A stretch of 64,000 nucleotides of DNA from a virus. Shown here piece after piece: positions 41,719 to 63,603 of this stretch. Where the stretch lies: the IMG/VR virus record IMGVR_UViG_3300027365_000011, positions 19,478 to 83,477 of that record; one strand, written 5' to 3'. Under the pieces are notes generated by a model, which ran no database searches, was not told where the DNA came from, and saw only the letters and a program-made list of their open reading frames with translations. How positions within the stretch are numbered: position 1 is the first letter of the stretch; each line of letters begins with the position of its first letter. The position numbers were made by a program, and so were the translations under genes.

Positions 41719-42309
41719 TCAAGCTCGGCTGCCGATCCAGACTACCCTCCCGGTAACGGGAAACGCGCTTTCCGGCCGATCATCGAAATTCGGGTAATCC
41801 TCATTGTCTGTTAATATGCTAATTGAGTTATCGGTCAATCCGGGCATGACGCGGCGGATTCGCGGGCTGCTCGCCTCCGAGGCGCTGACGTACAACCCGG
41901 GTTTCTTCACCCGCTCGCATGGCTCGATCAATACAATGTCCCCGGGGTTCAATGTCGCCGACATCGCATCGTCCTCGACAATGAGCGCGGCCAGCTCCGA
42001 GGCCTTGGTCCCCGTGATAGTCGCCAGATACCGATTGTCGAAGGGCAGATCGGCGGCGCCTTCCATCAGGTTGCGCACCGTCACGATCGTCGGCGTCCGT
42101 CGGGCATATTCTATCGAGCTCGAGGGAGTGATGAGAGCCTGCGGGGGGACGCCCAGCACCTCGGCGATGCGCGTCAGCGTGACCAGGTTGATCCGCTGCG
42201 GGTCGCGCTCCCAACGACTCACATTGGCCGCCGACGTATCCAGGCGGCGCGCCAGTTCGGTAATGCTCATGCCCTGCCGTGACCGGATTTCACGAATTGC
42301 CAGTTCCAT
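41719..42309 (-). CDS. CI-like repressor (XRE HTH plus degenerate S24 domain)
   Basis: IREIRSRQGMSITELARRL...VSRWE; NPGDIVLI...DNEDYP...GRVVW; divergent from cro. Confidence 0.85.
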   Translation of the reverse strand: MELAIREIRSRQGMSITELARRLDTSAANVSRWERDPQRINLVTLTRIAEVLGVPPQALITPSSSIEYARRTPTIVTVRNLMEGAADLPFDNRYLATITGTKASELAALIVEDDAMSATLNPGDIVLIEPCERVKKPGLYVSASEASSPRIRRVMPGLTDNSISILTDNEDYPNFDDRPESAFPVTGRVVWIGSRA

Positions 42310-45923: not shown

Positions 45924-48470
45924 ATGGCAGGCAGAAAAAGCAAGTTCGCCCACTTCGTCGCCGGGCTCACGTTCTGCGAGCCGGCCGACATGATCCAGCA
46001 TTTCTGGCCCGAACTGATGGAGCACGCCGCGCGCGTCGAGGCCAGCCTGGATGGCGTCGAGATCGTCACCGACGGCCAGCGCCACTACCTGCGCAACCTG
46101 AAAGGGGAGGACGACCAGCGCCAGTATTACATCGCCAACCTGGTCACGGACGGCGACGACACGGTATGGCCGTCCGTGACCTTCGGCAGCTTCAAGCAAC
46201 GCCTGGACAACGTGTATTTCAAGCCGCGCGACCTGGTGTGGCGCTCGTTCGAGAGCCACAAGGACGACGTGGTGGTCGACCTCGACCGCCACGCCGCGTA
46301 TCGCGAGCGCATCAAGGAAGCCCGTCAGGAAGCGCAGCGCCAGGCGATCGCCAACGAGACCATCAAGCGCGAAGCCCAGGAGGCCGCCGCCGAGGCTGCG
46401 GCCCAGGCCTGGCAGGCCGCCCAGGGCGTCGACCCCGCCGAATCCCACGCCTACCTGCTCAACAAGGGGCTGTCGATTCAGGGGCGGGTCCGGGTCGCGG
46501 CACACCGCCTGAGCGGCCGGCTGTACAGCCATACCTACCGCCAGTGGTACCCCCAGGCCACCATCGTCGACACCGGCGACCTGCTGCTGCCGGTGTACTC
46601 CGCCGACCCGACGACCCCCGGGCTCATCAACGTCCAGCGCATCGCCCGCGACGGCAGCAAGCGATTCCTGATGGGCGGCCAGAAAAAACTGGGCTACATG
46701 CCGGTCATGCCGGACGGCTGGAGCGGCGGTGCTCCCGACGCCCTGGTCATCGTGGAGGGCTATGCGACCGGGGCGAGCCTGCTGCATACGCGCGCCTTCG
46801 GCGAACGCCGGGTGGCGATCATCGTCGCCTTCGACAGCGGCAACGTGGCCGGCGTGGCGGCGGCGCTGATGGAGAAATACCCCGGCACGCCGGTCATCCT
46901 GGCCGCGGACAACGACCAGTCGACCCCCGGCAACCCGGGCATGACGCTGGCCGCCAACCTCAAGACCGACCCGGCCCTGCGGTTGCCGTTCATCGCCCCG
47001 ACGCTCCCGGACGGCGACACCCGCAAGGTCGACTTCGATGACCTGCGCCAGTGGTCGGGCGAGGCCGAAGTTACCCGCCAGGTGGCCGACCAGTTCGACG
47101 GCGCGGTGCATTTCTGGCGGCTGCACCATGACCCGGAATACCGCCAGAAGGTCGAGAGCGGCGAGGAAGGGGAGGGGCGCCCGGCGCTCAATATCCGCGA
47201 CCACTCGGAAGTGGTGGACGATTTTTCCTGGCCGAACCAGAAGCGCGGCTCGGTCGGCAAGCCGCTGCCCACGGAGGAAAACCTCGAGTGGATGACCCGC
47301 CAGTACGGCATCACCATGCGCTACAACGAAATCACCAAGGACGTGGAGATCGACGTACCCGGCGAGAATTTCAGCATCGACAACCGCAACAACGTCTCGC
47401 TGTCGAAGATCCGCGACCTGTGCGCGCGCAATGAGCTGCCCCGCGAGGACGTGGAATCCAAGGTCAAGGCGATCGCCGATCGTCAACGCTTCAACCCGAT
47501 CGTCGCCTGGATCAAGTCGCGCCCCTGGGACGGCCACGACTACCTGACGGACCTGTTCAACACCCTGACGCTGGCGCCCGATGTCGACCCCAAGCTGGCC
47601 AAGCTGCTGCTGGTCAAGTGGATGCTCGGCGCCGTGGCGCTGGCCGACAATCAGGGCCATATCTGGTCGAAATCGGTACTGGTGTTCACCGGCGAACAGT
47701 CCCAGGGCAAGACGAGCTGGTTTCGCGCCCTGGTCCCGGAGTCGACCGGCCTGACGAGCTGCATTGCCGACGGCCTGCACCTGGACCCCGCGGACAAGGA
47801 CACCGTGGCCACGGTGCTGTCGCACTGGCTGGTCGAGCTGGGCGAGCTGGACGCGACATTCCGCAAGGCGGACATCGCCCGCCTCAAGGCGTTCATCACC
47901 AAGAAGACCGACAAGCTGCGCCGCCCCTATGATCGTCAGGACAGCGAATACCCGCGGCGCACGGCGCTGTTCGCGTCGGTCAACGAAGACCGCTTCATGC
48001 AGGACCAGACCGGCAACTCACGCTGGTGGGCAATCGAGGTGCTGGCGCTCGATCACGAGCACGACATCGACATGCAGCAGGCCTGGGCGCAGTGCCATCA
48101 CCTGCTCGAGCAGGGCATGAAGCACTACCTGAGCCCGGCCGAGGAAGCCATGCTTGCCGGGTCGAATACCCGCTTCGAGCAGGTCGACCCGCTCGAGGAA
48201 ATGATCCTCAGCAGCTTCGAGGTCGAGGTGGGCTATGACGCCAACGGCTCGCCGGTCTACCGTTACGATCCACACTCGACCGTCGACATGACGGCGACTC
48301 AGGTGCTGATTCACGCGGGCATCGACAAGCCCACACGCAGCCAGGCCACCACGGCGGGGGCGTTCCTGCGCAAGCTGACCGGGGCCAAGGCGCGCCGGGC
48401 GGCCGCGGGCAATGTCTACCGGATGCCGGCGCCGAAGCAGCGGGGTGGCCAGGGGCCGGGGGGAGCGTGA
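45924..48470 (+). CDS. Primase-helicase (TOPRIM plus VapE/VirE ATPase plus C-terminal winged helix)
   Basis: YL..KG, EGYATG, AADND, DFDD; GEQSQGKT, ELGELD, RRPY, DQTGNSRW. Confidence 0.85.
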   Translation: MAGRKSKFAHFVAGLTFCEPADMIQHFWPELMEHAARVEASLDGVEIVTDGQRHYLRNLKGEDDQRQYYIANLVTDGDDTVWPSVTFGSFKQRLDNVYFKPRDLVWRSFESHKDDVVVDLDRHAAYRERIKEARQEAQRQAIANETIKREAQEAAAEAAAQAWQAAQGVDPAESHAYLLNKGLSIQGRVRVAAHRLSGRLYSHTYRQWYPQATIVDTGDLLLPVYSADPTTPGLINVQRIARDGSKRFLMGGQKKLGYMPVMPDGWSGGAPDALVIVEGYATGASLLHTRAFGERRVAIIVAFDSGNVAGVAAALMEKYPGTPVILAADNDQSTPGNPGMTLAANLKTDPALRLPFIAPTLPDGDTRKVDFDDLRQWSGEAEVTRQVADQFDGAVHFWRLHHDPEYRQKVESGEEGEGRPALNIRDHSEVVDDFSWPNQKRGSVGKPLPTEENLEWMTRQYGITMRYNEITKDVEIDVPGENFSIDNRNNVSLSKIRDLCARNELPREDVESKVKAIADRQRFNPIVAWIKSRPWDGHDYLTDLFNTLTLAPDVDPKLAKLLLVKWMLGAVALADNQGHIWSKSVLVFTGEQSQGKTSWFRALVPESTGLTSCIADGLHLDPADKDTVATVLSHWLVELGELDATFRKADIARLKAFITKKTDKLRRPYDRQDSEYPRRTALFASVNEDRFMQDQTGNSRWWAIEVLALDHEHDIDMQQAWAQCHHLLEQGMKHYLSPAEEAMLAGSNTRFEQVDPLEEMILSSFEVEVGYDANGSPVYRYDPHSTVDMTATQVLIHAGIDKPTRSQATTAGAFLRKLTGAKARRAAAGNVYRMPAPKQRGGQGPGGA

Positions 48471-48502
48471 CAGGGAATCGGGAAAGCGGGGGAGGAAATG
48501 AA

Positions 48503-48527
48503 GAAGGGCTGCTTAGTGCAGCCCTTC
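48503..48527. terminator. Terminator hairpin between convergent genes
   Basis: GAAGGGCTGC-ttagt-GCAGCCCTTC. Confidence 0.65.
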
Positions 48528-48530
48528 GTG

Positions 48531-48767
48531 CTATTTACCGTCTGTGTCCAGCAGATCGGTTAGGGTTTCCAGCTCGAACTCCTGGTTCTCGATGACCGCC
48601 TCGGCATGCACGCTCCCCGTCCGCGCCAGCCGAATCATTTGCTGAGTGTCGGGGTTTTCCTTGGCCCCTTCGCTGATGATGGCCTGCATCACCGACTGCG
48701 ATTCCCGCACACACTCCAGCGCGCTCTCGACCGCATCAATCGCACGCTTGCTGTCACTAGAACCCAT
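48531..48767 (-). CDS. Small helical hypothetical protein
   Basis: GAGGA RBS before ATG 48767. Confidence 0.5.
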   Translation of the reverse strand: MGSSDSKRAIDAVESALECVRESQSVMQAIISEGAKENPDTQQMIRLARTGSVHAEAVIENQEFELETLTDLLDTDGK

Positions 48768-49258
48768 TTGACTTCCTCTTTCCCTTCGGGCATTCCGCCG
48801 CGTGTTATGGTTCAACCAGGTTTATTGGGATAGCCCGTTCAACGAAATACTCGCGATTTATAGGCTGAAACCTGCTGAAAAATTCCGTCTCGCAACGGCG
48901 CTGGGGCCGGCGATCGGAAAGGTTATGAATTGGCGCGGAGTCCCTTCATGGCGCTTGTCGCTTGCGAGATACGCCCGTCCTTGGGCGGTGTCGACTGGGA
49001 TACGGGGCAACCTGTATGGTATGGCGGCACATTTTTGTCTCTATGGTTTGTGCCACCCAAATGATTACTTTTAAGGAAAACTTATGGCGGGTAATTTACC
49101 CTAGATGCCTTTTTTTGTCTACGCTTTAAAAGGCATTACACCATTACTTTAATACGCTCGTTTCGAAAAATAAGCCTCATTCGACACGCACCCAATAAAT
49201 GCACGGTTTGTCGTTGTTCTCATGCCAATAACCGACACGCTTTTCGATACAAGCGGGC

Positions 49259-49420
49259 TCAGGCGGCCGGCACCAGCCGGACCAACTCCGACTCCCGAAA
49301 CGGCCGTTCCGTGCCATCGACCAGACGCACCCACCACGATCGGCCGTTGCCGCCCGGGCAGCGGTCCATGAGCTCGCCCACGCCGACAGGCGACAGCACC
49401 GGGGCTCCCGTGAATAACAT
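49259..49420 (-). CDS. 53-aa SH3/KOW-like protein (not in the ORF track)
   Basis: MLFTGAPVLSPVGVGELMDRCPGGNGRSWWVRLVDGTERPFRESELVRLVPAA*; GGAG RBS; ends the leftward operon. Confidence 0.6.
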   Translation of the reverse strand: MLFTGAPVLSPVGVGELMDRCPGGNGRSWWVRLVDGTERPFRESELVRLVPAA

Positions 49421-49423
49421 GGC

Positions 49424-49783
49424 TCACTCCACTTCCAGGGCGGCGGGCTGCGCCGGCAGCTCGCCGACATCGAAGTACACCGGCAGCCCCAGCTCCTCGG
49501 CCCGCGCGATCTCCGCGCGCGTGCCGTCGCTGGCCTGCCAGTTGGGCGCCACCACCACCACGTCGCATTTCTCCATGACGTTCAGGGTCAACGCCAGCCA
49601 GAAGTCGTCATCGCCGACGTGCTCGAGGCCGGTGGACAGGTTATGCGGCACGATGGGGTGCCAGCCGCGCTCGGCGACCAGCACGCCCACCTGGCGGGCG
49701 CGGTTGACGTTGACGGTGACGCCCAGCGGCGTGGCGGCGCGGTACGGGCCGGCCACATAGGCCAGCGGGGGATTACTCGGCAT
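49424..49783 (-). CDS. DUF4406/nucleoside deoxyribosyltransferase-like protein
   Basis: YVAGPY...PIVPH...CDVV...WQASDGTRAE...GLPV. Confidence 0.8.
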   Translation of the reverse strand: MPSNPPLAYVAGPYRAATPLGVTVNVNRARQVGVLVAERGWHPIVPHNLSTGLEHVGDDDFWLALTLNVMEKCDVVVVAPNWQASDGTRAEIARAEELGLPVYFDVGELPAQPAALEVE

Positions 49784-50318
49784 TGATGATGTCCTCGATG
49801 GCTTGATCGGTCAGGTCCAGGTCGTGCTGGTGGCGGTACAGGATCGGCGCCATGCCCGGGGAGCCTTTCGCCCAGGGCTTCATGATGGTCACGCGGTCGA
49901 CCAGGTGATTGGGGTTGCCGCGGGCCTCGGCAGCCTCCATGGCAGCCTCAAGGAACGGCACGATGCCCTGACCGACGGCGGTGAACGCCTGGTCGGTGCG
50001 GATCTCCACCGAATCCAGGTACTCCTTGCCGCCGTCCGGGTTGCGGAAGTACGCGATGGCCAGCACGCTCCACTGCATCGGCACGCAGATGGTCATGTCG
50101 TGCAGGTCGTCGCGGCTGACATCGAGCGGCAATGGCACCGAAAAGCCCCAGTGCAGGAACCCGCTCTGGCGTCGAACCTCATAGAAGGTCCGGGCGTAGC
50201 GGTTCGTTGTCCGCCGCAGGTACTTGGCCCGCTTCGCCGAAACGGCGGCCTTCTTCTCGGCAGCGCGGCGCTCACGACGGTTGGCCGGGGCCTGGCGATC
50301 ATTAGCGGCGTGCGACAT
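49773..50318 (-). CDS. Hypothetical protein
   Basis: GGAG RBS; coupled. Confidence 0.65.
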   Translation of the reverse strand: MSHAANDRQAPANRRERRAAEKKAAVSAKRAKYLRRTTNRYARTFYEVRRQSGFLHWGFSVPLPLDVSRDDLHDMTICVPMQWSVLAIAYFRNPDGGKEYLDSVEIRTDQAFTAVGQGIVPFLEAAMEAAEARGNPNHLVDRVTIMKPWAKGSPGMAPILYRHQHDLDLTDQAIEDIINAE

Positions 50319-50505
50319 GCTGGATTCTCCGGTTCACTTCGCGGCTGTCCCGTGAGCCGCAGCGTTTGCAGTAGTCGAGTTCGATGCGCTCGAACGTCTC
50401 GGGGTCAAGGTCGGTCTTGTCGCTGGCGCCGACGTGGCGGCAACAGCCCGGGCACCAGTAGTCCAGGCCGCGACCGCGGCGCAGGGCAGGGCGGTGGCGA
50501 ATCAT
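50302..50505 (-). CDS. Small Zn-finger protein
   Basis: CPGC...CKRC; AAGGAG-like RBS. Confidence 0.55.
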   Translation of the reverse strand: MIRHRPALRRGRGLDYWCPGCCRHVGASDKTDLDPETFERIELDYCKRCGSRDSREVNRRIQHVARR

Positions 50506-50897
50506 CACTCGCCTTCCTTGGCCTGGCGGTGCAGCTTCTTGGCGTGCAGGCGCAGCCAGTCGGCGGTCCACTCGTCATCCCGAGCAATCACCTCGGCCAT
50601 TTCCTCCAGCCCTTCGGCTTTCACTCGTGCATCGCGGCGGGCGAGGCTGGCGGCGGGCGAGCTATTCCTTACCTCGTCCAGCTCGAAAGTCCAGTCGTCA
50701 TCGGCCAGCGCCTCCTCGCTGGTGGCCTCAAGAAACCGCCATACATGCGCCGCCAGCTCGTCACGCTCGCGGGCAATCGGATTCTTCGGGCAGATCCAGT
50801 CGTGCTCGATCAGCGCCCGATAGGCGTCCTTCTGGAGCACGCCGTAGCGGGCGCCATGGCGCACCTGGTAGTCGCAGTAGATGCAGGTGGCAGTCAT
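50505..50897 (-). CDS. Hypothetical phage protein
   Basis: CIYC...H..ICPKNP; SLARRDARVKAEGLEE is a common phage module. Confidence 0.65.
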   Translation of the reverse strand: MTATCIYCDYQVRHGARYGVLQKDAYRALIEHDWICPKNPIARERDELAAHVWRFLEATSEEALADDDWTFELDEVRNSSPAASLARRDARVKAEGLEEMAEVIARDDEWTADWLRLHAKKLHRQAKEGE

Positions 50898-51253
50898 GAC
50901 TCCCCCCGCTGAATCACGTCGCCCGACATGGTGCTGGCGCTGCCGCCGATACTCCCGCTGACCTCCACGTCGCCGCTCATGGTGCGGACATCGCCGGCCA
51001 CGTCGTGGCAGATAATGTCCCCGCTGGAGCTTTTGACCTCCCTGCAGGAACCGTCTACCCGGACATTCCCGGAAGTCGTCTCCACGGACTCGGCATCGCC
51101 CTGCACCGTCACGTAGACCGGGCCGACCAGGGAGCCGTCCTGCACTTCGCCGTCGACCACCACCTTGTCGCCGTTGATAGTGATGTTGCGGCCCTCGAAG
51201 TCGCGGCCGTCGATCGTGACGCGGCCCCGCTGGCCGCCCAGGTGGATCTTCAT
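50894..51253 (-). CDS. Beta-strand repeat protein (DUF4097-like)
   Basis: Repeated T(T/S/M)SG(N/D)V units. Confidence 0.75.
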   Translation of the reverse strand: MKIHLGGQRGRVTIDGRDFEGRNITINGDKVVVDGEVQDGSLVGPVYVTVQGDAESVETTSGNVRVDGSCREVKSSSGDIICHDVAGDVRTMSGDVEVSGSIGGSASTMSGDVIQRGES

Positions 51254-51555
51254 GCGGTCTCTCCCAAGTCGTCGTCGCGGGCGATCAGCCCAAGGGTGGC
51301 CATCAATGACCGGGCTTCCTCGCTGGCCAGCGAGTAGTACACGGTCTGGCTCTCGCGGCGTGTGTCGACCAGCCCGGTGCGGCGAAGCATGGCCAGGTGC
51401 TGGGACAGGGCGGACTGGCTCAGGGCGATGCGACGGTTCAGGGCCGTGACCGACATTTCGCGTGAGCTGGCCAGCAGCACCAGGGCGGACAGCCGGAAGG
51501 GGTTGCTCATGGCGCGCAGGATCTCGGCATTGCGAGCCAGGGTGGTGTCATTCAT
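51250..51555 (-). CDS. ArsR/SmtB-family transcriptional regulator
   Basis: SNPFRL...LSQSALSQHLAMLR...RRESQTVYYSL. Confidence 0.9.
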   Translation of the reverse strand: MNDTTLARNAEILRAMSNPFRLSALVLLASSREMSVTALNRRIALSQSALSQHLAMLRRTGLVDTRRESQTVYYSLASEEARSLMATLGLIARDDDLGETA

Positions 51556-51576
51556 GGTTCGTTCCTTGCGGTTCGG

Positions 51577-51738
51577 TCAGCGGACCAGGTGTTCGAGGGT
51601 GCAGTAGCAGCGGGATTCGCCGCCCGCGCGGCACTCCCGGTATTGTTCGAGGGCCTTCCAGTACGAGAGGGCCACCAGGGCCAGGCAGCCGGTGTAGACG
51701 ATGGCCTTCTTCAAGCGGCGTTCGGTGCGGCGTCTCAT
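51577..51738 (-). CDS. Small membrane protein (53 aa, not in the ORF track)
   Basis: MRRRTERRLKKAIVYTGCLALVALSYWKALEQYRECR...; start overlaps the upstream stop. Confidence 0.5.
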   Translation of the reverse strand: MRRRTERRLKKAIVYTGCLALVALSYWKALEQYRECRAGGESRCYCTLEHLVR

Positions 51739-52379
51739 TCGCCCGTCACCTCGCGTAGCAGGCGGGCGTTATCGGCTTCGAGGTGGTCGACACGCGCCCA
51801 CAGCGTCTTGACGCCCGCCCGGGCGCCGGCGGTCAGGCCCACCAGATTGAGCTCGGCATACCAGCGGTGCTCATCGGTCGCGGCCAGGCGCACGCGCCAG
51901 TCGCGGCGACCGTTCACCTTGCCGTCCACGGCGTCGATGATGCCCAGCCCGGCCGGGGTCATTACCGGGTCGCCCAGGGCGATGCCGTAGCCCGCGGCGG
52001 CATCGTCCAGGTCGTCAGCGTCGGGCTCCGGGGCGGCGATCGGGCCGGCCCACTCGAGCGGGCGCCAGCCCCGCCCGAAGCGCCAGGCGTCGCCCTCGCG
52101 GGTCCGGTGCTCGGCTTCCAGTTGGGGCGCCAGGTCGCTCTCCCACATCAGCGGATGGCGCGGGTCCATGTCGCCGCCAAGGATCGAGTAGTTCAGCTCG
52201 GGGGCGAAGCGGTTGCCGTCCCGGCGCCGCAGGCCCATCGTCACGCGGCAGATCACCGGCCGGTTGAAACCCCAGCCGCGGACCCAGTAGAACCGCTCGT
52301 CCAGGGCTTTCAGGCCCATGGCCTCGAAGTCAGCCAGCCGCGGGGGCGTGGCCTGCCAGACGGCGGGCAGGTCGATCAT
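51735..52379 (-). CDS. Hypothetical protein with C-terminal SH3-like domain
   Basis: ATG 52379 directly after the upstream stop. Confidence 0.6.
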   Translation of the reverse strand: MIDLPAVWQATPPRLADFEAMGLKALDERFYWVRGWGFNRPVICRVTMGLRRRDGNRFAPELNYSILGGDMDPRHPLMWESDLAPQLEAEHRTREGDAWRFGRGWRPLEWAGPIAAPEPDADDLDDAAAGYGIALGDPVMTPAGLGIIDAVDGKVNGRRDWRVRLAATDEHRWYAELNLVGLTAGARAGVKTLWARVDHLEADNARLLREVTGE

Positions 52380-52381
52380 TG

Positions 52382-52600
52382 TCACGCCAGCGCTCCCCGG
52401 GCCACGGTGGCGGCCCGCCGACGGCGATGTTCGGCTTGCTCGAACAGATGGCGGGCGCGCTGGCGCAGGTGATGCGCCGCCTCGGGGAAGTCGCCAGCCA
52501 GTTGCCCGGCCAGGCTCTCCAGCTCCCGGGCCGCGGCCGAATCCTGCAGGTTCTCGACCACCAGCCGCAGGTCGCGCGGCATGTCCATGGCGTCGCTCAT
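52382..52600 (-). CDS. Hypothetical protein
   Basis: ATGA overlap with rdgC. Confidence 0.6.
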
Positions 52601-53772
52601 GCCGCACCCCCGAGGACTGTCCGCTGGCCGTTGGTATCCATGGGCGACACCACGCCGGCGGCCTCCATGGATTCGATCAGCCGCGCCGCCCGGTTGTAGC
52701 CGAGCTTGAGCGCACGCTGCAGGCCCGAGACGCTGGCGCGCCGGGTCGATGTCACCAGTGCCACGGCATCCCCGTAGAGCGGGTCCGCGTCGTCGTCGGC
52801 GGCGGGCGCAGGCATGTCGGGGGCCTCGCCGTCGGCCAGGGCCGGTGTGGCTTCGCCGCCCAGCGCGTCGATGAGTTGTTCGACGGCCCGCGCCAGCACC
52901 TGGGTCATCAGCAGGAAGTCGCTTTCGAGGCGGGCGATCGGGTCATCGCCGCTTTCGTCCTGAGCCGCCTCATCGAGCACCGCGTCGGCGAAGCGCAGCG
53001 ACTTGAGCGACAGGTCATCGCCCAGCACCAGCGAGACCGATTCGTTGACCCGGAAGGCCAGCTTGGACGCCTGACGGCCGGCCTCGAGGGCGGCCTGCAC
53101 TTCCTCGCCGTCGAGGTCCACCTGGCGCGCCCGGATGATGCCGTCATCGCCGGTGGTCGACTTCAACTCCACCTGGTCGCCCAGTTCCAGCCAACCGGGG
53201 CGGCTGCTGGAGCGGTTGAGCCATTCGGTCATGGCGCGGGTCGGCGTCACCTGGGTGGCCAGCGGCGTGACCTTGAGCGAGCCCAGCGTCTGGCGCAGCA
53301 GGTCCAGCGTGTCTTCGGCCCGGGCACGGCTCGAGGCGTTGACGACGATGCGCGAGCGCACGGTGTCCCACCACACGTCAATCCGCTGACTGCGCACGAA
53401 GGCCCGCGGCAGCAGCTCCTCGTACACCTGTTCCTTGAGCGCCTGCTTTTCCTGACGGCGCAACGGGCGGCCTTCGGCGGCTTCCCGGTCGGCGGCGCGC
53501 TCCTCGACTTCCTCGGCGACCACGCTGGGCGGCAGCATCCGTTCCTGGCGCAGCACGGTCAGCAGGCGCTGGCCGTTGATGCTGTGGAGGCGAACCTGGC
53601 TTCCCGGGCCGCCGGGCTTGGTCCAGCCCAGGCGCTTTTTCTCCGAATCGCCCAGGGGGCGATGGGCGTGTTCCTCCAGCATCCCGGTCAGCGCGTCGTC
53701 GGTCAGCGGCGGGGCATCATGCAGGGCGTAAACATGGGCGTTCTTGAAGAACATGGGCGGCCTCTGTTCCAT
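52597..53772 (-). CDS. rdgC: Recombination-associated protein RdgC with C-terminal FtsK-gamma domain
   Basis: [23 protein letters not shown]; DPLYGDAV...[24 protein letters not shown]. Confidence 0.9.
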
Positions 53773-53842
53773 TTCAGGTAATAGACGGCCACTTTATTTC
53801 CTAATGAGTAATGTTGCAAGCAAAGAAATACCCCGCAGGAAA
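53767..53842 (-). promoter_or_regulatory. rdgC promoter with three operator boxes
   Basis: TTGCAA-17-TAAAGT on the minus strand; boxes at 53767, 53797 and 53828. Confidence 0.65.
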
Positions 53843-53903
53843 TATCCGGCGGGGTATGGGGAAGGGTGGCCGCGCTGGCGCTTGGCGTTAGATTCTCACG
53901 CCA

Positions 53904-54281
53904 TCAGGCGGTGTCGTCGCGCTGGCGCCACACGAAGCGCCGTTGACGGATGCGGCCCTGCAGGCGCTTCCACGCCGCGGCGTCGACCCAGCGCTCCGCC
54001 CAGGCCAGCAGCATGTCGGCTTGCCGGCGCGGCGGGTAGTCCTCGGGGTAGTTGGTGAAGTCCGATGCCAGCGCCAGCAGTTCAGCCCGGCCCAGGCGAG
54101 CGCTCCAGCCACCCCCGGCCGATCGGGGCGGGGCATCGCGATTCATCGCTTCGGCCCGGGCGGCGAGGTTGAGCGTCTGCGAGGTCGGGTCGAAGGTGGC
54201 GTCCAACAGGATGCCCAGCCACAAGGCGGCTTCCCCGGCGTCGATCCGGCGCTTCGAGGGCTTCAAAGGGCTCGATGGCAT
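53904..54281 (-). CDS. Hypothetical protein
   Basis: GGAGGT RBS before ATG 54281; basic C-terminal helix. Confidence 0.65.
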   Translation of the reverse strand: MPSSPLKPSKRRIDAGEAALWLGILLDATFDPTSQTLNLAARAEAMNRDAPPRSAGGGWSARLGRAELLALASDFTNYPEDYPPRRQADMLLAWAERWVDAAAWKRLQGRIRQRRFVWRQRDDTA

Positions 54282-54356
54282 GGCGGCGGCACCTCCGGCA
54301 AAAGCCAACCCCGCACCCCTCCGCCATGCGGCGAGTGGCGCACGGTTCGCGGGCAC

Positions 54357-54542
54357 TCAGACAAAATCGTTGGGCGTGACCTGGCCGTCGCTCCAGTCAC
54401 GAATCCGGCGCAACCCCTTGGCGTTGGGCGTGCTGGCGCCGGTTTCCCATCGCCAGTAGCGGATATAGCTGACCTCCAGCTCGCGGGCGGCCTCGACGGG
54501 TCCGATGCGGCGGACGGTTTCCCGGTATTCCTTGAGCTTCAC
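54357..54542 (-). CDS. Second Cro-like HTH protein
   Basis: GGAG then GTG start; YWRWETG...GQVTPNDF; promoter TTGCCT-17-TACCAT. Confidence 0.8.
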   Translation of the reverse strand: MKLKEYRETVRRIGPVEAARELEVSYIRYWRWETGASTPNAKGLRRIRDWSDGQVTPNDFV

Positions 54543-54817
54543 CCTGGTCTCCAATCGGTCGTAAGTCAGGGGAATGGTATTTCACGCCATGAAATAAGGC
54601 AAACGGAGGCAGGTAAGGGTCTGTCACGCGACAGGTAAGGCACCAGGGGAGTCGGCAAGCGTCCGGGCCTCAATCGGGGACGCACACGCCCCCGGGCTGT
54701 ATTTCCACAAGGGTCTTGTATTTCAGCCTCTCGACCCGGACGCGGCAAAGCCTACACGTCGCGCCCGACCAGCGCCACCCACGGCGGGGAGCCGGGCCGG
54801 TTTCGCGAGGCCCCAGC

Positions 54818-55122
54818 ACCGTAACCACCGTAACCTTTTGGAACCTTGCGCGGGGAGGTTACACACCGCTGGAGGCCGCGCCACGCAAGGCTTTCAGCCA
54901 TTCTACCGTAACCACCGTAACCTTTTTATAGTCAGCAGACTTGAGAGAGTTGGAAATAATAGAAGGGGGCTAAATAGGGGCTATTATTTCGCGAAAGGAA
55001 AAGTCCTATGGGGAGGTTGCACAGGTTACAAAAAACGCCCCTGCGACATCGCTGAAAGCCCCGCCATCCGTGGCCTGCGGCTGACCATGTAACCTTCACC
55101 GCAACCTTGCCGAAGGTTACAC
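54818..55122. other. Candidate replication origin (GTAACC iterons around an AT/purine-rich core)
   Basis: ACCGTAACCACCGTAACCTTTT twice; inverted GGTT(A/G)CA copies; non-coding; lies at a transcription divergence point. Confidence 0.6.
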
Positions 55123-55296
55123 ACCCGCCCGATAGGGAGGCGCATGACAGCCGTCCTGCCTCACGGTTAACGCTCCACCCCAAGCCCGCGAAAAATTCTC
55201 GCCTCGGGTCCGAAAAATCCCCTTACACCGTTACAATGAGCGTGAACTTACCTGTGGGGTAAAACCTTGTTCACGCAATCCCTGTTCTCTCTGCTC

Positions 55297-55437
55297 ATGT
55301 TCGCCCTGCTTGCCTTCGGTGTCGGCGCTTTCACCGCGCTGACGATCGACCCCAGCGCCTGGCCCTTGTGGCTGCGCCTGGCTTCGTCCCTCGGAGCCCT
55401 GGGCGCATGGCTCTGGGACGTGGCGCGGCACGGGTGA
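55297..55437 (+). CDS. Small two-TM membrane peptide at the head of the lysis cassette
   Basis: MFALLAFGVGAFTALTIDPSAWPLWLRLASSLGALGAWLWDVARHG*; weak RBS. Confidence 0.4.
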   Translation: MFALLAFGVGAFTALTIDPSAWPLWLRLASSLGALGAWLWDVARHG

Positions 55438-55467
55438 TTCAGCAACCCAACGACGACGCGAGGCGTT

Positions 55468-55812
55468 ATGACCGAAAACGACCCCCAATATTGGGCCACG
55501 CTCCTGCAGAACGCCTGGATGGTGGTTCTCGCGATATGGGGCGGGATGGTGGCCTATTACCAACGATTCCGCTCCCAGCGTGAGCCGTTCTCCTGGCTCG
55601 TGCTGCTGGGCGAACTGGCCACCTGCTCCCTGACGGGCGTGCTGGCGCTGTATGCCTGCATGGAAATGGACCTGTCGTGGCCCATGACCGCCATCGTGGT
55701 CGCGCTGTCCGGTCATGCCGGAGGCAGCCTGTTGAAGATGGCGGACAGCATGCTCCGGCGTCGTTTCGGCTTGATCCTCGGCAGCGATCAAAATGGAGGC
55801 GACCGCGGATGA
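55468..55812 (+). CDS. Holin (LydA-like)
   Basis: Three TM segments, AIWGG...GE...SGHAG; upstream of the endolysin. Confidence 0.8.
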   Translation: MTENDPQYWATLLQNAWMVVLAIWGGMVAYYQRFRSQREPFSWLVLLGELATCSLTGVLALYACMEMDLSWPMTAIVVALSGHAGGSLLKMADSMLRRRFGLILGSDQNGGDRG

Positions 55813-56054
55813 GCGCCATTTACCTGTTCAGCCTGGGCGGGGTGGCGCTGGCCACCTTGACCCTGGTGCATGCCCTGTACCTGAGAAATCGACCTGCCCG
55901 CTATCTGATGCCGGCCTTGCTGGCGCTGACTGTGTTCATCGCCACCGCCGCCGCCCCCTTCCTGCCTCTCGACGTGGCCCGCGTCATCGCATCCATGGTG
56001 CTCATCTGCGTGGCCGTCGATCACTCCCATCACGACGGAGGCCAGCATGCCTGA
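55809..56054 (+). CDS. Membrane protein of the lysis cassette
   Basis: Three hydrophobic segments; ATGA overlap; GGAGG RBS. Confidence 0.6.
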   Translation: MSAIYLFSLGGVALATLTLVHALYLRNRPARYLMPALLALTVFIATAAAPFLPLDVARVIASMVLICVAVDHSHHDGGQHA

Positions 56055-56886
56055 CACGAACTGGTACGACGCCGCGGATCTCAAGACCGCGGTGGTCAAG
56101 CCGTCGTCGCCGGTGCCCGACGTGATGCGCTTGCAGCAGGCCCTGGATGACGCGGGGTATGCGATCAGCGTCGACGGCATCTATGGGGACGGCACCAACC
56201 GCGTGCTTCGGGCCGCGCAACGACAGATGGGGCTGGTGGCCGACGGGATCGCCGGCCCCAAGACCTTCGCGGCCCTGGAAGGCCTCGACGTGGCCGCGCT
56301 GCTGGGGCAGGACGACATCGAGCGGGCCGCCGACGCCCTGGGCGTGTCGGTCCCGGCGGTGATGGCGGTCAACGAAGTCGAGTCCCGAGGGCATGGCTTC
56401 CTGGACTGCGGACTGCCGGTGATTCTGTTCGAGCGTCACTGGATGCGCCGCCAGCTCGAGGACGCCGGCATCGACCCGGCCCCCTGGGCTGCCAAGCACC
56501 CCGGCATCGTCAGCACCCGGCCCGGTGGCTACCAGGGCGGGCGACAGGAACACGACCGGCTGGCCGTGGCGCGAGCCATCAATGAGCCGGCGGCCCTGCA
56601 ATCCGCATCGTGGGGCCTGTTCCAGATCATGGGCTTTCACTATGCGTCGCTGGGCTTCGACACACCCGAGGCCATGGAAAGGGCGGCGTCGCATTCCGAG
56701 GGGCGCCAACTCGATATGTTCGTGGCGTTCATCCGTGCCGACGCGGACCTGCATCGCGCCCTGGAAGGCCACGACTGGGCGGACTTCGCCGAGCGCTACA
56801 ACGGCCCCGCCTACGCCAAGAACCAGTACGACGCCCGCCTGAGTCGTGCCTTTGCCCGGCACGCGCGAGCCCTTGCGGCCGCGTGA
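56047..56886 (+). CDS. Endolysin: PG-binding domain plus DUF3380 N-acetylmuramidase
   Basis: DGIYG...DGIAGP; VESRG.GF, ILFERH, SASWGLFQIMGF, RYNGP.Y. Confidence 0.92.
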   Translation: MPDTNWYDAADLKTAVVKPSSPVPDVMRLQQALDDAGYAISVDGIYGDGTNRVLRAAQRQMGLVADGIAGPKTFAALEGLDVAALLGQDDIERAADALGVSVPAVMAVNEVESRGHGFLDCGLPVILFERHWMRRQLEDAGIDPAPWAAKHPGIVSTRPGGYQGGRQEHDRLAVARAINEPAALQSASWGLFQIMGFHYASLGFDTPEAMERAASHSEGRQLDMFVAFIRADADLHRALEGHDWADFAERYNGPAYAKNQYDARLSRAFARHARALAAA

Positions 56887-56908
56887 CTTCAACCTGCGAG
56901 GAAACCTC

Positions 56909-57148
56909 ATGAGAAAGCGCATCATCCTGCTGTCCATCGCCGGCACGTTCGCCCTGGGCGGCTGCTCGAACCTCGTCACCCCGGCCGATGACGACTACCA
57001 CTTCGGCGACACGACCCGGACCTACTGCGAGACCACCGACCCACGCCTGCGGGATGCCGGGCGTGAAGCGGCAAGCGTCGCCGGGGTCAGGCTGTTCGAC
57101 CTGTGCCGAGCCATCGGCATCGAGTTCAAGGAGGACATTGATGGGTAA
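56909..57148 (+). CDS. Lipoprotein (spanin-like)
   Basis: Lipobox LGGC; follows the endolysin. Confidence 0.65.
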   Translation: MRKRIILLSIAGTFALGGCSNLVTPADDDYHFGDTTRTYCETTDPRLRDAGREAASVAGVRLFDLCRAIGIEFKEDIDG

Positions 57149-57626
57149 GGCGCTGGCCAAGGTCCACGCCATCAAGGTGCCGGGGGTCGTGCCGTACTAC
57201 GGCTCCCGGCCGCCCTGGATCGGCGAGGGTCGACCGATGTTCATTACCACGGCCGAAGGCCAGTATCGCGCCCGGGATGGCGTCACCGTCACCGTGCCTC
57301 GCGGCTTCGTGACCGACCTGGCGAGTACGCCGCGGTGGCTGTGGTCGCTGCTGCCCCCGCATGGCGGCCTCGCACTGGCCAGCCTGCCGCATGACTGGGG
57401 CTATGCCCAGGGCGGCAAACATGGGCTGCTGCCCAAGCCGTGGTGGGATGCGCTGTTCCGCGACCTGCTGGCCATCACCCCGGACGTGCCGCGCTGGAAG
57501 GCGGCCATCGCCTACCTGGGGGTGCGCTATGGCGGCAAGGGCGGCTGGGTCAACGGCTGGCATCCGTTCACACCGGGCACGGTGCCCGACTGGAAATCAT
57601 TGGGGGAGGAAGCCGCGCATGGCTGA
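57141..57626 (+). CDS. DUF1353 protein
   Basis: VPRGFVTDLASTP...HDW.Y...D..FR...GVR..G. Confidence 0.8.
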   Translation: MGKALAKVHAIKVPGVVPYYGSRPPWIGEGRPMFITTAEGQYRARDGVTVTVPRGFVTDLASTPRWLWSLLPPHGGLALASLPHDWGYAQGGKHGLLPKPWWDALFRDLLAITPDVPRWKAAIAYLGVRYGGKGGWVNGWHPFTPGTVPDWKSLGEEAAHG

Positions 57627-58692
57627 GAAGAAGCGAGGGCGGGACTACTGGCTCACGCTGCTGCGCGAACATGCCCGGTCAGGGGAAACCCTGGCCGCGT
57701 TCTGCAAGCGTCGGCGAGTCAGCTACAAGACGGCACGCAACTGGCGGTCCCGGTTCGGGGATGACGAGATCGGGGGCAATGGGGGCACTGTCCCTGTCCC
57801 TGACGAATCGGGACAGGGACACCAAGGCTTTTCGGGGGAGGGCGACTCGGGCTCTGGTGCCGATGAGCCGGGCGATGGAGAAAAAAGCGAGCCACGCACG
57901 CCACCCCTGGAGGGCGACACCCTCCCCGGGGGCGGGAAACATGCCGGCGGCAGCGACAAGCCTGCCCGCAAGCCGCACCCCGGCTGGGCCAACCTGATTC
58001 CGGCCGAGCCCGGCAACCAGCGCGCCCGCAAGCACGGCGGCTACTCCAAGTACCTGCCCCCCGAGGTGCAGGACGAGGTGAACACCTATGGGCGCAACGA
58101 CCTGCTGAGTGTCATCGAGGAGATCCGGCTGACCAAGGGCCGGCTGATTATGGTCACGCGCAGCCGCGCTGCCTGGGATGCCAAGGTCGACTATGCCGAG
58201 CTGACGGACACCGACTACCAGGTGGATGAGATCGCCGAGAAGAAGACCCCGGACGGCCGGGAGCGATCGGTGAAGCGCACCCGGCCCAAGTTCGAGGATC
58301 TGGAAGACCAGCTCACTCGCCGCCTGGCCTGGCTCCAGCAAGTGCATGACACGCTCTCGCGCCGGGTCAGCTACACCGCCGACGAAGCTGCCCGGCTGCG
58401 CTCGGACATCATGACCCGCGCCGACGACGAAGGCTGGACGGCGATCGAGACCGGCTGGGAGATCGAGAAGCTGGGGCTCGAACTGCCGTTCACCCTGCAG
58501 CAGCGCATCCGCTCCGAGCTGGCGCTCATGGAGCCGGAAGAACCCGAGGGCGGCATGACCGACGACGAACTCGAGGCGCTGTCCGTCGAGTACGAACGCA
58601 AGATGAGCGGCGAACCCCAATGGCTGGCCGAGCGCCGCTCGGAGGTGAAAGAGATCCACGAAGCCAAGGATGCCGAGAGGAAGGGAGAATGA
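57619..58692 (+). CDS. pacA: Terminase small subunit (P1 PacA-like)
   Basis: N-terminal HTH, GNQRARKHGGY, C-terminal WTAIE...WLAERRSEV as in PacA. Confidence 0.75.
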   Translation: MAEKKRGRDYWLTLLREHARSGETLAAFCKRRRVSYKTARNWRSRFGDDEIGGNGGTVPVPDESGQGHQGFSGEGDSGSGADEPGDGEKSEPRTPPLEGDTLPGGGKHAGGSDKPARKPHPGWANLIPAEPGNQRARKHGGYSKYLPPEVQDEVNTYGRNDLLSVIEEIRLTKGRLIMVTRSRAAWDAKVDYAELTDTDYQVDEIAEKKTPDGRERSVKRTRPKFEDLEDQLTRRLAWLQQVHDTLSRRVSYTADEAARLRSDIMTRADDEGWTAIETGWEIEKLGLELPFTLQQRIRSELALMEPEEPEGGMTDDELEALSVEYERKMSGEPQWLAERRSEVKEIHEAKDAERKGE

Positions 58693-58699
58693 CCATCGA

Positions 58700-58860
58700 G
58701 AAGGCCCTGACACCGGCCGCGTAGCGTGTCGAAACGGGTATATCTCAGCGAAAACGCCCCACCGGCCACCGTGGGGCGTTTTTATTATTGCCATATCAGA
58801 CCCTAACCGCTACATTGGTTTTCGCTACACCATATCGAAACGCACACAACCCACCGAGGT
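58700..58860. promoter_or_regulatory. Probable res site/promoter of the resolvase
   Basis: AT-richer region with repeated CCATATC and TCGAAACG elements directly upstream of a serine recombinase. Confidence 0.45.
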
Positions 58861-58865
58861 AGCCG

Positions 58866-59486
58866 ATGAAAACCGCTCGCATCTACATGCGCGTCTCGAC
58901 CGATCAACAGGATCTCGAGCGCCAGCGCCAGTTGATCGACCAGGCCCGCGCCGAGGGCTACTACATCGCCGGCACTTACACGGACAAGGCCAGCGGCACC
59001 CACACCAACCGCCCAGGGCTGCAACGGATGATTGACGAGATCCAGCCCGGCGACGTGGTGATTGCCGAGAAGATCGACCGCATCACCCGCGCGCCGCTGG
59101 CCGATGCCGAAGCGCTGGTGCGCGCGATCGAGGACAAGGGCGCCCGGCTGGCCGTCCCCGGAATGCTCGACCTGACCGAGATCGAGGCCGAGGGCATGGC
59201 GCGCATCGTGCTCGACACCATGCAGACGATGATTCTGCGCATCACGTTGCAGATGGCCCGCGACGACTATGAGACGCGCCGCGCCCGTCAGGCCCAGGGC
59301 ATCGCCCGCGCCAAGCGCAACGGCGTCTACAAAGGGCGACCCAAGAACCTCGAGAAACGCGAGAAGATTGCCGAGCTGCTGGAGGCCGGTTTCAGCGTGC
59401 GCCGGGTCGCCAAGCTGGCCGGCGCCAGCACCAGCACCGTGCAGAATGTGAAGAATGCCATGAAATCGGGGGAGGGCGAGGACTAG
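58866..59486 (+). CDS. Serine recombinase (resolvase)
   Basis: YMRVSTDQQ, DKASG...RPGL, DRITR, YKGRP, C-terminal HTH. Confidence 0.95.
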   Translation: MKTARIYMRVSTDQQDLERQRQLIDQARAEGYYIAGTYTDKASGTHTNRPGLQRMIDEIQPGDVVIAEKIDRITRAPLADAEALVRAIEDKGARLAVPGMLDLTEIEAEGMARIVLDTMQTMILRITLQMARDDYETRRARQAQGIARAKRNGVYKGRPKNLEKREKIAELLEAGFSVRRVAKLAGASTSTVQNVKNAMKSGEGED

Positions 59487-59517
59487 CCGGCCCTGCCCGA
59501 GTAGGGGTAGCATCCCC

Positions 59518-59574
59518 GTGGGCGGCTAGGGTAGCTCCCGAAAGGCCGGACTTCGCACCCGGCTTGCCGCCCAC
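59518..59574 (+). ncRNA. Structured RNA leader (three-way junction) upstream of rha
   Basis: GTGGGCGGC/GCCGCCCAC closing stem with GGG-TAGCT-CCC and AGGCCGG-ACTTCGCAC-CCGGCTT hairpins. Confidence 0.55.
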
Positions 59575-59608
59575 CTTCCTGCCCGTGCGAGCACTTGCGA
59601 GGTGTGAC

Positions 59609-60367
59609 ATGCAGCAAGCCTCCCTTCCCGTCGATACCATCGTCACCCTGGACGACACCGGCTGCCCGGTTACTACGTCCAAGGCGATTGCCGATGGCGT
59701 CGGCAATCCGCACAAGACGGTTATTCAGCTTGTGCGCCAGAACGTCAGTGATTTAGAGGACTTCGGAGGGGTCGCATTTGAAATGCGACCCTTTGAAACC
59801 CGGGGTGGCACCCAGCATCGAGAGGTCGCCATACTGAATGAGCCGCAGTCCACGCTGCTGATGACCTACATGCGCAACAATGCAGTGGTGCGGGAGTTCA
59901 AGAAACGGCTGGTCCGCGCGTTCTTTGAAATGGCCCGGGAGCGCCAGCAAGCCCCGGAGCCCGCTGCCCGCGCCTTTGGCTCCACCGGCGACGCCGATCT
60001 GGACCGCCGCCTGGACGTTGAGCAGGGCATCCTCGAGCGCGCCGGCATCCCGAAGGGCGAGCACATGGCCCGCCTGCTACGCGCCGCCGTGGCCCCCAGC
60101 GAGCCCCAGGCGCCAGCCGAGCCGATGGTCGACGGCCCCCCGGCGCATCGCATGGCCGCCCTGATCGGCCGCCACTTCGACTTCACGCATCCCCCGGTAG
60201 TGCGCATGACCGCCACGGAGGTGCTGCAGGCGTGCGGCATTGCCGAGCCCACGCGCGCCCAGGCCACGGCGGCAGGCGTCGCCATCGCCAGACTAAGCGG
60301 CCGGGAGCCGATGCGCGGCGGCCATGGCAACCTTCACGCGATGCCGAGGCCCTTGGCCAAGCACTGA
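59609..60367 (+). CDS. Rha-family regulator/antirepressor with C-terminal winged helix
   Basis: TTSKAIA...HKTVIQLVR...LNEPQSTLLMTYMRN...FKKRLVRAF. Confidence 0.85.
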   Translation: MQQASLPVDTIVTLDDTGCPVTTSKAIADGVGNPHKTVIQLVRQNVSDLEDFGGVAFEMRPFETRGGTQHREVAILNEPQSTLLMTYMRNNAVVREFKKRLVRAFFEMARERQQAPEPAARAFGSTGDADLDRRLDVEQGILERAGIPKGEHMARLLRAAVAPSEPQAPAEPMVDGPPAHRMAALIGRHFDFTHPPVVRMTATEVLQACGIAEPTRAQATAAGVAIARLSGREPMRGGHGNLHAMPRPLAKH

Positions 60368-60418: not shown

Positions 60419-60513
60419 CGTGCCCGCGGCCTGCTTCGCATAACACACATTATGTTAAATATCAACAACTTGCAGCAGCCGCCCACGGCCGGGCGGCTTT
60501 TTCTTGGGCGCAT

Positions 60514-63053: not shown

Positions 63054-63126
63054 TGCGGCGTAGCTCAACGGTCAGAGCCTGTGCTTGAAGGCGCGATGGT
63101 TGCCGGTTCGAGTCCGGCCGCCGCAT
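63054..63126 (+). tRNA. tRNA-like gene, anticodon undetermined (GAA or TGA in an irregular loop)
   Basis: Acceptor TGCGGCG/CGCCGCA, D arm GCTC/GAGC, T arm GCCGG-TTCGAGT-CCGGC; no CCA directly after the discriminator. Confidence 0.75.
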
Positions 63127-63162
63127 TCCCCATCTCTCTCCCCACGACGCAAAGGATTCCGC

Positions 63163-63603
63163 ATGTTCGGTCTGTTCAACAAGCGCATGAAGAAAGCCCA
63201 GCAGAACCTCAAGAAAGTCGAGAACCGCGACCTCATGGAAGCGATCGTGGGCGGCTGCCTGCTGATTGCCGCGGCCGATGGCGAGATCGAGAAGGAAGAA
63301 ACCGACAAGCTCGACCAGCTCCTGCGCTCCAACCCGCGGCTCCAGGGCTTCGGCAACGAGATCAGCCAGACTATCCAGCGCTTCCGTGACCAGCTCGACG
63401 CCGGCTTCCAGGTTGGCCGCCTGCATATCCTCCGCGAGCTGCAGGACATCGCCGACGATCGCGCGCACGCCGAGGAAGTGCTGGTGAACATGATTACGAT
63501 CGCTGGCGCGGATGGCGAGTTCGAGGATGATGAAGTCGCCGTCATCAAGGAAGTCGCCGGCACCCTGGGCCTCAACGCCAGCGACTACGGCCTGCCGGCA
63601 TGA
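63163..63603 (+). CDS. tciA: TerB-family protein (P1 TciA-like)
   Basis: KVENRDLMEAIVGG..LIAAADGEIE...IAGADGEF. Confidence 0.85.
   Translation: MFGLFNKRMKKAQQNLKKVENRDLMEAIVGGCLLIAAADGEIEKEETDKLDQLLRSNPRLQGFGNEISQTIQRFRDQLDAGFQVGRLHILRELQDIADDRAHAEEVLVNMITIAGADGEFEDDEVAVIKEVAGTLGLNASDYGLPA

Follow-up and report, generated by a model that had tools for sequence, protein, structure and literature searches.

A phage Rha-family protein with a winged helix related to the C-terminus of its primase-helicase, and its possible relation to a candidate origin

Self-loading primase-helicase initiators occur widely among phages, satellites and phage-plasmids. This report concerns a protein resembling these initiators and a second protein that shares its C-terminal winged helix, both encoded in the virus record IMGVR_UViG_3300027365_000011 of IMG/VR. 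The whole stretch of DNA analyzed, called the window hereafter, has 64,000 nucleotides and corresponds to positions 19478–83477 of the record; coordinates are those of the window unless otherwise stated. The two proteins are an 848-aa primase-helicase (45924–48470, + strand) and a 252-aa protein of the Rha family (59609–60367, + strand).

Passages of PMC9371898 (Qiao et al. 2022) describe the Reps of the Staphylococcus aureus pathogenicity islands (SaPIs) as self-loading superfamily 3 (SF3) helicase-initiators, the origin of which lies just downstream of rep. According to the same passages, the C-terminal winged helix of SaPI Rep binds iterons of 5–6 nt on either side of an AT-rich region, and the C-terminal domain packs on the ATPase body of the neighbouring protomer and is required for full activity. 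The plan of primase, SF3 helicase and winged helix is also that of the P4 alpha protein and of pRN1 ORF904, as given in part of PMC2777425. In addition, a copied initiator domain is described in passages of PMC8263062 (Barth et al. 2021) for phage ICP1, whose Odn protein carries a copy of the origin-binding domain of PLE RepA and uses the copy to find that origin. As for the Rha family, passages of PMC4936722 report that the rha genes of phi80 and P22 block growth in hosts deficient in integration host factor. The function of Rha proteins is poorly defined, and "antirepressor" is a family label only.

The winged helix shared by the primase-helicase and the Rha-family protein

An earlier sequence-only reading of the window had aligned the C-terminus of the primase-helicase (48288–48428) with that of the Rha protein (60206–60346) and had taken both for winged helices. 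Both stretches translate as written, and the alignment of 23 identities in 47 positions without gaps was reproduced (BLASTP 47 bits, E 5e-15, composition-adjusted); between the full-length proteins, 25/52 identities with E 2e-11 is the sole significant match (primase residues 786–837, Rha residues 212–263 in the numbering from a TTG start). The homology and the winged-helix fold thus stand, on the basis of BLASTP, AlphaFold2 and the Atlas structure search. Chance or composition in a GC-rich genome might be suspected, as both peptides are rich in Ala, Gly and Arg and the Rha row departs in composition from the alignment; however, when one peptide was shuffled 100,000 times, no shuffle was as good as 23/47, the E value of 5e-15 is composition-adjusted, the primase of a relative with 54% GC scores nearly the same as the window primase (116 vs 122), the domain profile matches the whole primase family, and an independent structure-based search recovers VapE C-termini. 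This explanation is already refuted, and its remaining probability is negligible.

The homology reaches about 25 residues further upstream, covering one more helix and one more strand and about 75 residues in total in the wider family alignment; in this extension Rha has AHRMAALIGRHFDF against the family pattern DPxEExIxxxFDW. At the DNA level 84 of 141 positions are identical (51% at third codon positions), and the same codon is used at 11 of the 23 identical residues. Because of this low DNA identity and the few shared codons, the two copies are regarded as old paralogues, and a recent duplication or gene conversion of the winged helix is ruled out by the divergence. In the whole 83,477-bp record the domain occurs exactly twice.

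The fold was modelled by AlphaFold2 for Rha residues 170–252 (numbered from the ATG start) with an alignment of 75 sequences, giving a canonical winged helix with a predicted local distance difference test (pLDDT) score of 83 and the elements H9-20, E29-32, H33-40, H47-61, E66-68 and E71-76 (order H-E-H-H-E-E). In the Atlas structure search, which used the Atlas's own model, all ten rows had template-modelling (TM) scores of 0.66–0.77; nine were C-termini of VapE-domain clusters, whose N-termini are Toprim, PriCT-2, Prim-Pol or DnaG-zinc domains, and one was a stand-alone cluster of 101 aa. The fold neighbours of the Rha tail in the PDB are weak and generic winged helices, the top one being RFX5 (Z 4.8); Foldseek against the PDB and BFVD gave no match with E ≤ 0.001, and a wide fold search gave none with Z ≥ 5. 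Small proteins of PPpW-3 and Mano, which were weak BFVD matches, were considered as extra copies and rejected, the hidden Markov model (HMM) confirming none within 4 kb of their primases. There is also a weak profile match to the APSES domain of Mbp1 (4ux5, E 0.08, WINATHILKAAGFDKPART); no APSES structure appears in the fold lists, and a KilA-N/APSES link is left as an unexplained lead only.

Related primases were collected from 80 viral and 48 genomic loci, and the search set comprised 24,805 open reading frames (ORFs) from 130 sources, that is, 129 loci, some of them duplicated, and the virus record. A three-sequence HMM matched the extreme C-terminus of most primases, nearly all listed matches ending within about 30 residues of the end of the ORF, and a 75-sequence HMM of the domain matched 128 long ORFs (330 aa or more) across the set. 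By these profiles, nearly every Toprim-VapE primase-helicase collected ends in the winged helix. The domain is similar to DUF3874 (PF12990), in which Bacteroides VirE/VapE proteins end, in that it occupies the same place after the VapE helicase in the window primase and in that the Atlas neighbours of the Rha tail include clusters with DUF3874; however, the primase copy is below the Pfam cut-off (E 0.017, 15.9 bits against 28.3) and the Rha copy has no match.

The Rha gene likely starts at ATG 59609, with AGGTG 4–5 nt upstream, rather than at TTG 59564, which would give 267 aa (P0005 is the recorded product). Its N-terminal Phage_pRha domain (59672–59935, +, residues 37–124) is matched by Pfam PF09669 with 1.1e-14 and 55.2 bits (cut-off 29.9) and by PHROG families of transcriptional regulators or Rha-like proteins; NCBIfam TIGR02681 gives 24.9 on the protein with a cut-off of 45.95. 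The C-terminal 143 residues match no Pfam family even at E 10. They include a middle segment (59945–60097, +; ARAFGSTG..LDRRLD..LERAGIPKGE..LRAA), 43 residues of which match no Pfam family and resemble weakly only some two-helix proteins, and continue with the captured winged helix (60131–60346, +), composed of alpha0, a strand, H2, the recognition helix RAQATAAGVAIARLS and the wing MRG-GH-GNLHAM. The protein is similar to Rha/KilAC proteins (PF09669 + PF03374) in its Phage_pRha N-domain and its swappable C-terminal half, but no KilAC is matched in it by Pfam, so it does not have the Rha/KilAC antirepressor architecture. Among its Rha relatives, 322 of 5192 candidates passed E 1e-3 and 120 were listed; these 120 share the N-domain only, typically about 40% of the query and up to 76% identical there, and 81 of them carry KilAC in place of the winged-helix tail. 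Domain comparison shows the Rha protein to be a domain-shuffled regulator, in which KilAC is replaced by a middle segment of about 45 residues and a diverged paralogue of the initiator winged helix.

When Rha residues 128–267 were searched in a set of 5.8 billion proteins, two proteins were found, Rha itself and P0050, a protein of 249 aa on a 7.9-kb contig and the only other one of this build. The N-domains of the two are only about 24% identical (about 27/112), while their C-terminal halves are 53% identical (34/43 in the middle segment and 27/62 in the tail); because the N-domain of P0050 is far more diverged, the C-terminal half is a conserved unit placed on different N-domains, and its retention in P0050 is taken as a sign of selection. 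In INPHARED, none of the 40 phage matches listed extends past Rha residue 213 and none of 221 records covers 80% of the protein. An exhaustive profile search with an alignment over all 249 columns of P0050 gave Rha N-domains as the top 150, no other listed protein spanning the C-terminal half. Pattern scans with the winged-helix alignment in viral and genome contigs found no further member except the primase of the closest relative, those with the alignment of the C-terminal half in metagenome, viral and genome contigs found none, and in a region search the primase C-terminus matched itself alone. When 342 Halomonadaceae genomes were searched in six frames, three primases and no further fusion were found; six-frame matches in loci L011–L013 were judged spurious, being wrong-frame or antisense GC-rich ORFs, and so was one in genome G198, where a long ORF with high G + C at third codon positions lies opposite. 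No description of a Rha-initiator-domain fusion was found in the open-access literature. The Rha-winged-helix fusion is therefore very rare and takes the place of the usual KilAC domain.

The closest relative of the phage is a Vreelandella alkaliphila contig of 86,465 bp, which is a phage end to end, circularly permuted with respect to the virus record. Synteny between the two extends along the entire phage; the relative has 54% GC and the window phage 66%, and the two primases are 64–65% identical. In local BLOSUM62 comparison of the Rha domain with 73 primase domains, the cognate primase ranks first (122), that of the closest relative second (116) and the next scores 104, with a median of 78. 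The sequence-only reading had accepted that a Rha tail no closer to its cognate primase than to unrelated ones would speak against its proposal; by local score the cognate primase is indeed the closest of the 73, with a modest margin (122/116/104) and with a tree that does not settle the relationship. Segment by segment, the cognate primase ranks 4 in the recognition helix, one point under the top, and 3 in the wing, whereas that of the relative ranks 34 and 1, respectively; in the scaffold both rank 22–25 in the first helix, and both are last in alpha0/beta1, where they carry an insertion of about 17 residues absent from the Rha copies. P0050 shows the same pattern, the window primase being second in both the recognition helix and the wing. 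Furthermore, GN[VL][HY]x[ML]P, a motif of the wing, is limited to four sequences, namely, the primases of the window and the relative and the two copies of the Rha type. A careful tree joins these two copies as sisters with 100/99 support, and the stem leading to them is long. Taken from these comparisons, the nearest source of the Rha winged helix is probably the lineage holding the window primase, and the capture is old. The insertion mentioned above is a loop between helix alpha0 and the first winged-helix strand of the primase (48190–48285), common only to the window primase and its Vreelandella relative and absent from the other 71 primases and both Rha-type copies.

The primase-helicase, the iterons and the free-standing copies

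The primase-helicase, assigned by its Pfam, PHROG and PDB matches, consists of a Toprim primase domain (residues 274–380, EGYATG motif at 278; Toprim_3 27.6 bits, cut-off 27.2), a VapE-like SF3 helicase (residues 531–751; Pfam VapE-like_dom, PF05272, 7.5e-44, 150 bits) and the C-terminal winged-helix domain (48255–48440, +), which encloses the stretch 48288–48428. Its PHROG match is DNA primase with 8.2e-109, its best solved relative is SaPI1 Rep with double-stranded DNA (PDB 7pds, E 3.7e-15), a DUF5906 match is below the Pfam cut-off, and NCBIfam has no family for it. It is similar to SaPI Rep and PriRep5 in having a VapE-kind SF3 helicase and a winged-helix end, with a primase fused in front as in PriRep5 (compared with passages of PMC9371898), although the Rha tail domain alone is only weakly like SaPI1 Rep (7pds, Z 3.7).

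The sequence-only reading had called the protein a P4 alpha-type primase-helicase. This holds for the primase domain, which is homologous to that of P4 alpha (31% over 163 aa, E 2e-12, window primase residues 175–336) with EGYAT in both; the helicase and the winged helix have no BLASTP similarity to P4 alpha, and Pfam places the helicase with VapE-like and not with D5/P4. The HMM of the winged-helix family finds nothing in P4 alpha, and 1ka8 is absent from both the sequence and the fold search lists; the top fold neighbour of the Rha tail is an RFX-type winged helix (Z 4.8, weak), and a passage of PMC2777425 aligns 1ka8 to this class. The domain comparisons therefore indicate that the primase resembles SaPI Rep/PriRep-type initiators more than P4 alpha. 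In P4, Cnr acts through the C-terminus of alpha, and the same reading had suggested that Rha titrates such a regulator; this part has no candidate, because no Cnr homologue is present in the whole virus record (best tblastn E with P4 Cnr 1.1). Nor has P4 Cnr any similarity to the C-terminus of P4 alpha.

The candidate origin (54818–55125, no strand) contains GTAACC/GGTTAC iterons in both orientations, flanking an AT-rich stretch at about 54925–55010, and holds two ACCGTAACCACCGTAACCTTTT blocks. Of the 17 GTAACC/GGTTAC sites in the genome 8 fall in 54821–55115, and 10 of the 43 sites of the relative fall in the syntenic region with the same arrangement. Since the same word and arrangement are found at the syntenic place, the region 54818–55125 is credible as an origin by its sequence features and is the unique iteron cluster of this phage. 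The origin iterons of the sequence-only reading thus survive as a candidate, being a unique cluster around an AT-rich stretch that is conserved in the closest relative. The short iterons in both orientations about an AT-rich stretch are like those which passages of PMC9371898 describe for SaPI Rep; however, the cluster is not adjacent to the primase gene as it is in SaPIs, and no comparable cluster lies directly downstream of the window primase gene. In P4, iterons are annotated both at a distance from the gene (ori) and adjacent to it (crr).

In related loci, iterons are found directly after the primase gene, as in the SaPIs of PMC9371898: among the 68 relatives with enough flanking DNA, 29 have a 7-mer at least five times within −50 to +650 of the primase stop, compared with 25 of 1147 background windows (2%). 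The repeated word varies by lineage (TGTCAC, TGACCA, GTTCAC, GGGTCA and others), and such clusters, with 5–12 copies of a 7-mer per 350 bp, are seen for example at L021 11102–11452, L037 8496–8846, L045 from 2643, L110 from 9947 and L097 from 11549; the iterons of L037 read ATGACCA. They are candidate origins for dozens of uncultured phages. One further cluster, in L108 at about 11195–11545 (Marinobacter halophilus), has GGTAACC iterons with the same core as in the window phage, and the recognition helix of its primase is clearly different.

Furthermore, free-standing small copies of the winged helix are encoded in related phages. They are an ORF of 111 aa in L037, L038 and L042 (E 1.3e-7; L037 8844–9176), one of 100 aa in L021 (E 1.9e-7; 11470–11769) and one of 98 aa in L036 (E 2.5e-4; 9571–9864, −), each of which adjoins the primase gene and its iterons, one of 145 aa in L063 (E 3.3e-5; 11212–11646, −), which adjoins the primase gene, and two borderline ones of 113 aa in L096 and 92 aa in L040 (both E about 1e-3). 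With a broader HMM over the 24,805 ORFs, four small copies also adjoin an iteron or repeat cluster. A reciprocal HMM made from three of the small ORFs matches primase C-termini, and PHROG has no family for any of them. The cognate ranks of the extra copies other than Rha are mixed (23, 2, 6, 29, 7, 35 and 66 of 73). A 272-aa ORF of L018 with a weak C-terminal match (E 2.8e-4) is doubtful, having a deoxyribosyltransferase-like N-terminus and a cognate rank of 66/73.

What the captured winged helix may do

From the SaPI Rep biochemistry and from the iterons adjoining the primase gene in many relatives, the winged helix would be the iteron reader in initiators. The captured copy would then most likely direct Rha to specific DNA, for which the GTAACC cluster at 54818–55125 is the prime candidate; bound there, Rha could hinder or modulate the loading of the initiator or, alternatively, could affect the lysis/late operon that lies just downstream. 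We give a rough probability of 0.45 to this reading, in which the captured winged helix provides Rha with a sequence-specific DNA address and the protein modulates the initiator or the late operon. Competition for the origin by Rha, as the sequence-only reading had proposed, is plausible as a hypothesis. In this scheme Rha would be an accessory, trans-acting add-on outside the core replicon.

A number of points weigh against it. The iteron cluster lies 6.3 kb downstream of the primase gene, with 4.5 kb between it and the Rha gene, and it could be something other than an origin, such as control sites of late promoters. The relative has the same iterons, yet its whole genome contains no Rha and no second winged helix. 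No simple code from recognition helix to iteron was found across the family, the recognition helix being no simple predictor because the distant primase relative in L108 shares GGTAACC with a different helix. The AlphaFold2 model leans on the family, since its input alignment consists mostly of primase domains. As to the descent of the domain, the global identity of Rha with the cognate primase (25/62) is nearly tied with that to unrelated primases (24/59, 24/61 and 24/62), the grouping of the Rha copies with the cognate clade has a support of just 68/71, and the smallest well-supported set around them in the tree comprises 36 rows.

Further opposing evidence is in the residues of the Rha-type copies themselves. 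Each has 4 Lys + Arg in the 47-residue core (mean of the 73 primases 8.4, minimum 5) and a net charge of +1 or +2 (primase mean +4.9). In 6 columns, 70% or more of the primases have a basic residue; both Rha-type copies keep three of these and lose three, namely, the K/R that precedes the helix-capping Pro, the Arg of LRKL and the first Arg of the wing. In addition, they have a deviant composition and a stem branch of 2.18. Because of the lost basic positions, the long branch and the deviant composition, DNA binding by the Rha tail may have been weakened, shared with the N-domain or given up. All structural positions of the winged helix are kept in the Rha copies, and the acidic residues of alpha0 conserved in primases (DPxEE) are lost.

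One alternative is that the captured winged helix has lost DNA binding and now serves as a protein-binding module, with the middle segment as the effector. It might dock on the initiator hexamer by replacing a subunit's own C-terminal domain, or it might bind another partner. The loss of three of six conserved basic positions with the lowest Lys + Arg count of the 75 domains, the long stem branch and deviant composition, and the middle segment as the best-conserved part (34/43) all fit with this explanation, as does the packing of the SaPI Rep C-terminal domain on a neighbouring ATPase body in the passages of PMC9371898. However, the DPxEE residues of alpha0 have been lost too, for which reason docking in the native manner is not favoured; moreover, the recognition helix and the wing are just the parts that are likest the cognate primase, and no partner has been identified. 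We consider this explanation somewhat unlikely.

The ICP1 system provides the closest precedent for a captured initiator domain. As in Odn, an origin-binding domain of an initiator has been copied into a different phage protein, and the Odn copy was shown to carry iteron specificity (passages of PMC8263062). Odn differs in that it joins a RepA_N-type DNA-binding part to a T5orf172 nuclease, while the partner in the window is a Rha domain without known catalysis, and in that its copied domain was taken from a hostile satellite, the origin of which Odn has been shown to cleave, while the source in the window is nearest the phage's own lineage and action at an origin is hypothetical. By analogy, Rha might be aimed at other replicons, occupying the origins of related PriRep-type elements such as sister phages or satellites for exclusion or incompatibility. 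In line with this, the copied domain of Odn targets an origin (PMC8263062, in part), the Rha gene, which the closest relative lacks, is located in a variable accessory region, and the domain has diverged from the cognate one (40–49% identity). Nevertheless, the Rha N-domain has no known nuclease or destructive activity by Pfam and PHROG, the nearest primase domains remain those of the lineage of the phage itself, and there is no known target element, so that such a role seems very unlikely.

It is also conceivable that the protein is an ordinary regulator of the Rha/Ant type acting on lysogeny genes, and that its winged helix is an interchangeable DNA-binding or dimerisation tail with no link to replication. 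C-terminal modules vary in this family, KilAC being present in 81 of the 120 listed relatives and unrelated tails in others. A CI-like repressor (HTH_3 + Peptidase_S24; 41719–42309, −), the presumed target if Rha is an antirepressor, carries an S24 self-cleavage domain, and induction therefore has no obvious need of an antirepressor. On the other hand, the module was found in only two proteins of the 5.8-billion search and otherwise occurs in initiators or beside the primase gene, and it is closest to the initiator of the phage itself. This makes an ordinary regulator distinctly unlikely.

If the captured helix still reads iterons, a phage regulator has been wired to its own origin by copying the address domain of the initiator. 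To our knowledge, experiments have so far demonstrated the logic of a copied address domain in one case only, the ICP1 Odn nuclease acting on a satellite. A general and unstudied control of self-loading primase-helicase initiators is suggested by the free-standing copies that related phages carry next to their origins. In the widest form of this idea, which we consider unlikely, trans-encoded initiator winged helices would constitute an undescribed layer of replication control, reading the same iterons as decoys or gatekeepers and setting copy number, the switch between plasmid and lytic replication, or exclusion; the passages of PMC9371898 mention no second trans-encoded winged helix for SaPIs. 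If DNA binding has been lost, Rha would be a case of ordinary module shuffling in Rha/Ant-type proteins.

Genome context

The Rha gene is preceded directly by a serine recombinase of the resolvase/invertase kind (58866–59486, +; Pfam Resolvase 1.9e-25). A promoter-like site at 58788–58816 and a terminator-like hairpin at 60477–60498 were found as consensus matches only, and the recombinase and Rha are possibly co-transcribed. The relative retains the serine recombinase, which is followed there by unrelated small ORFs; since the Rha gene is absent from this closest syntenic relative, the Rha protein is regarded as accessory.

Among about 55 ORFs scanned a resolvase and no integrase were present. 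Hallmarks of a phage-plasmid are a ParA/MipZ-like ATPase (34689–35537, −) and an adjoining ORF of 158 aa (35541–36017), near which lies an array of about nine copies of an 11-bp repeat (36102–36195). The structural region contains a single ORF of 2454 aa (22175–29539), which is 61% identical to the relative over 1260 aa. In the record upstream of the window, an ORF just after the tail-fibre genes (L147 12436–12849) matches Avd, the accessory protein of diversity-generating retroelements (PHROG 3206, 6e-10), and the accessory region downstream of Rha carries a TerB-like gene of the tellurite-resistance family (63085–63603).

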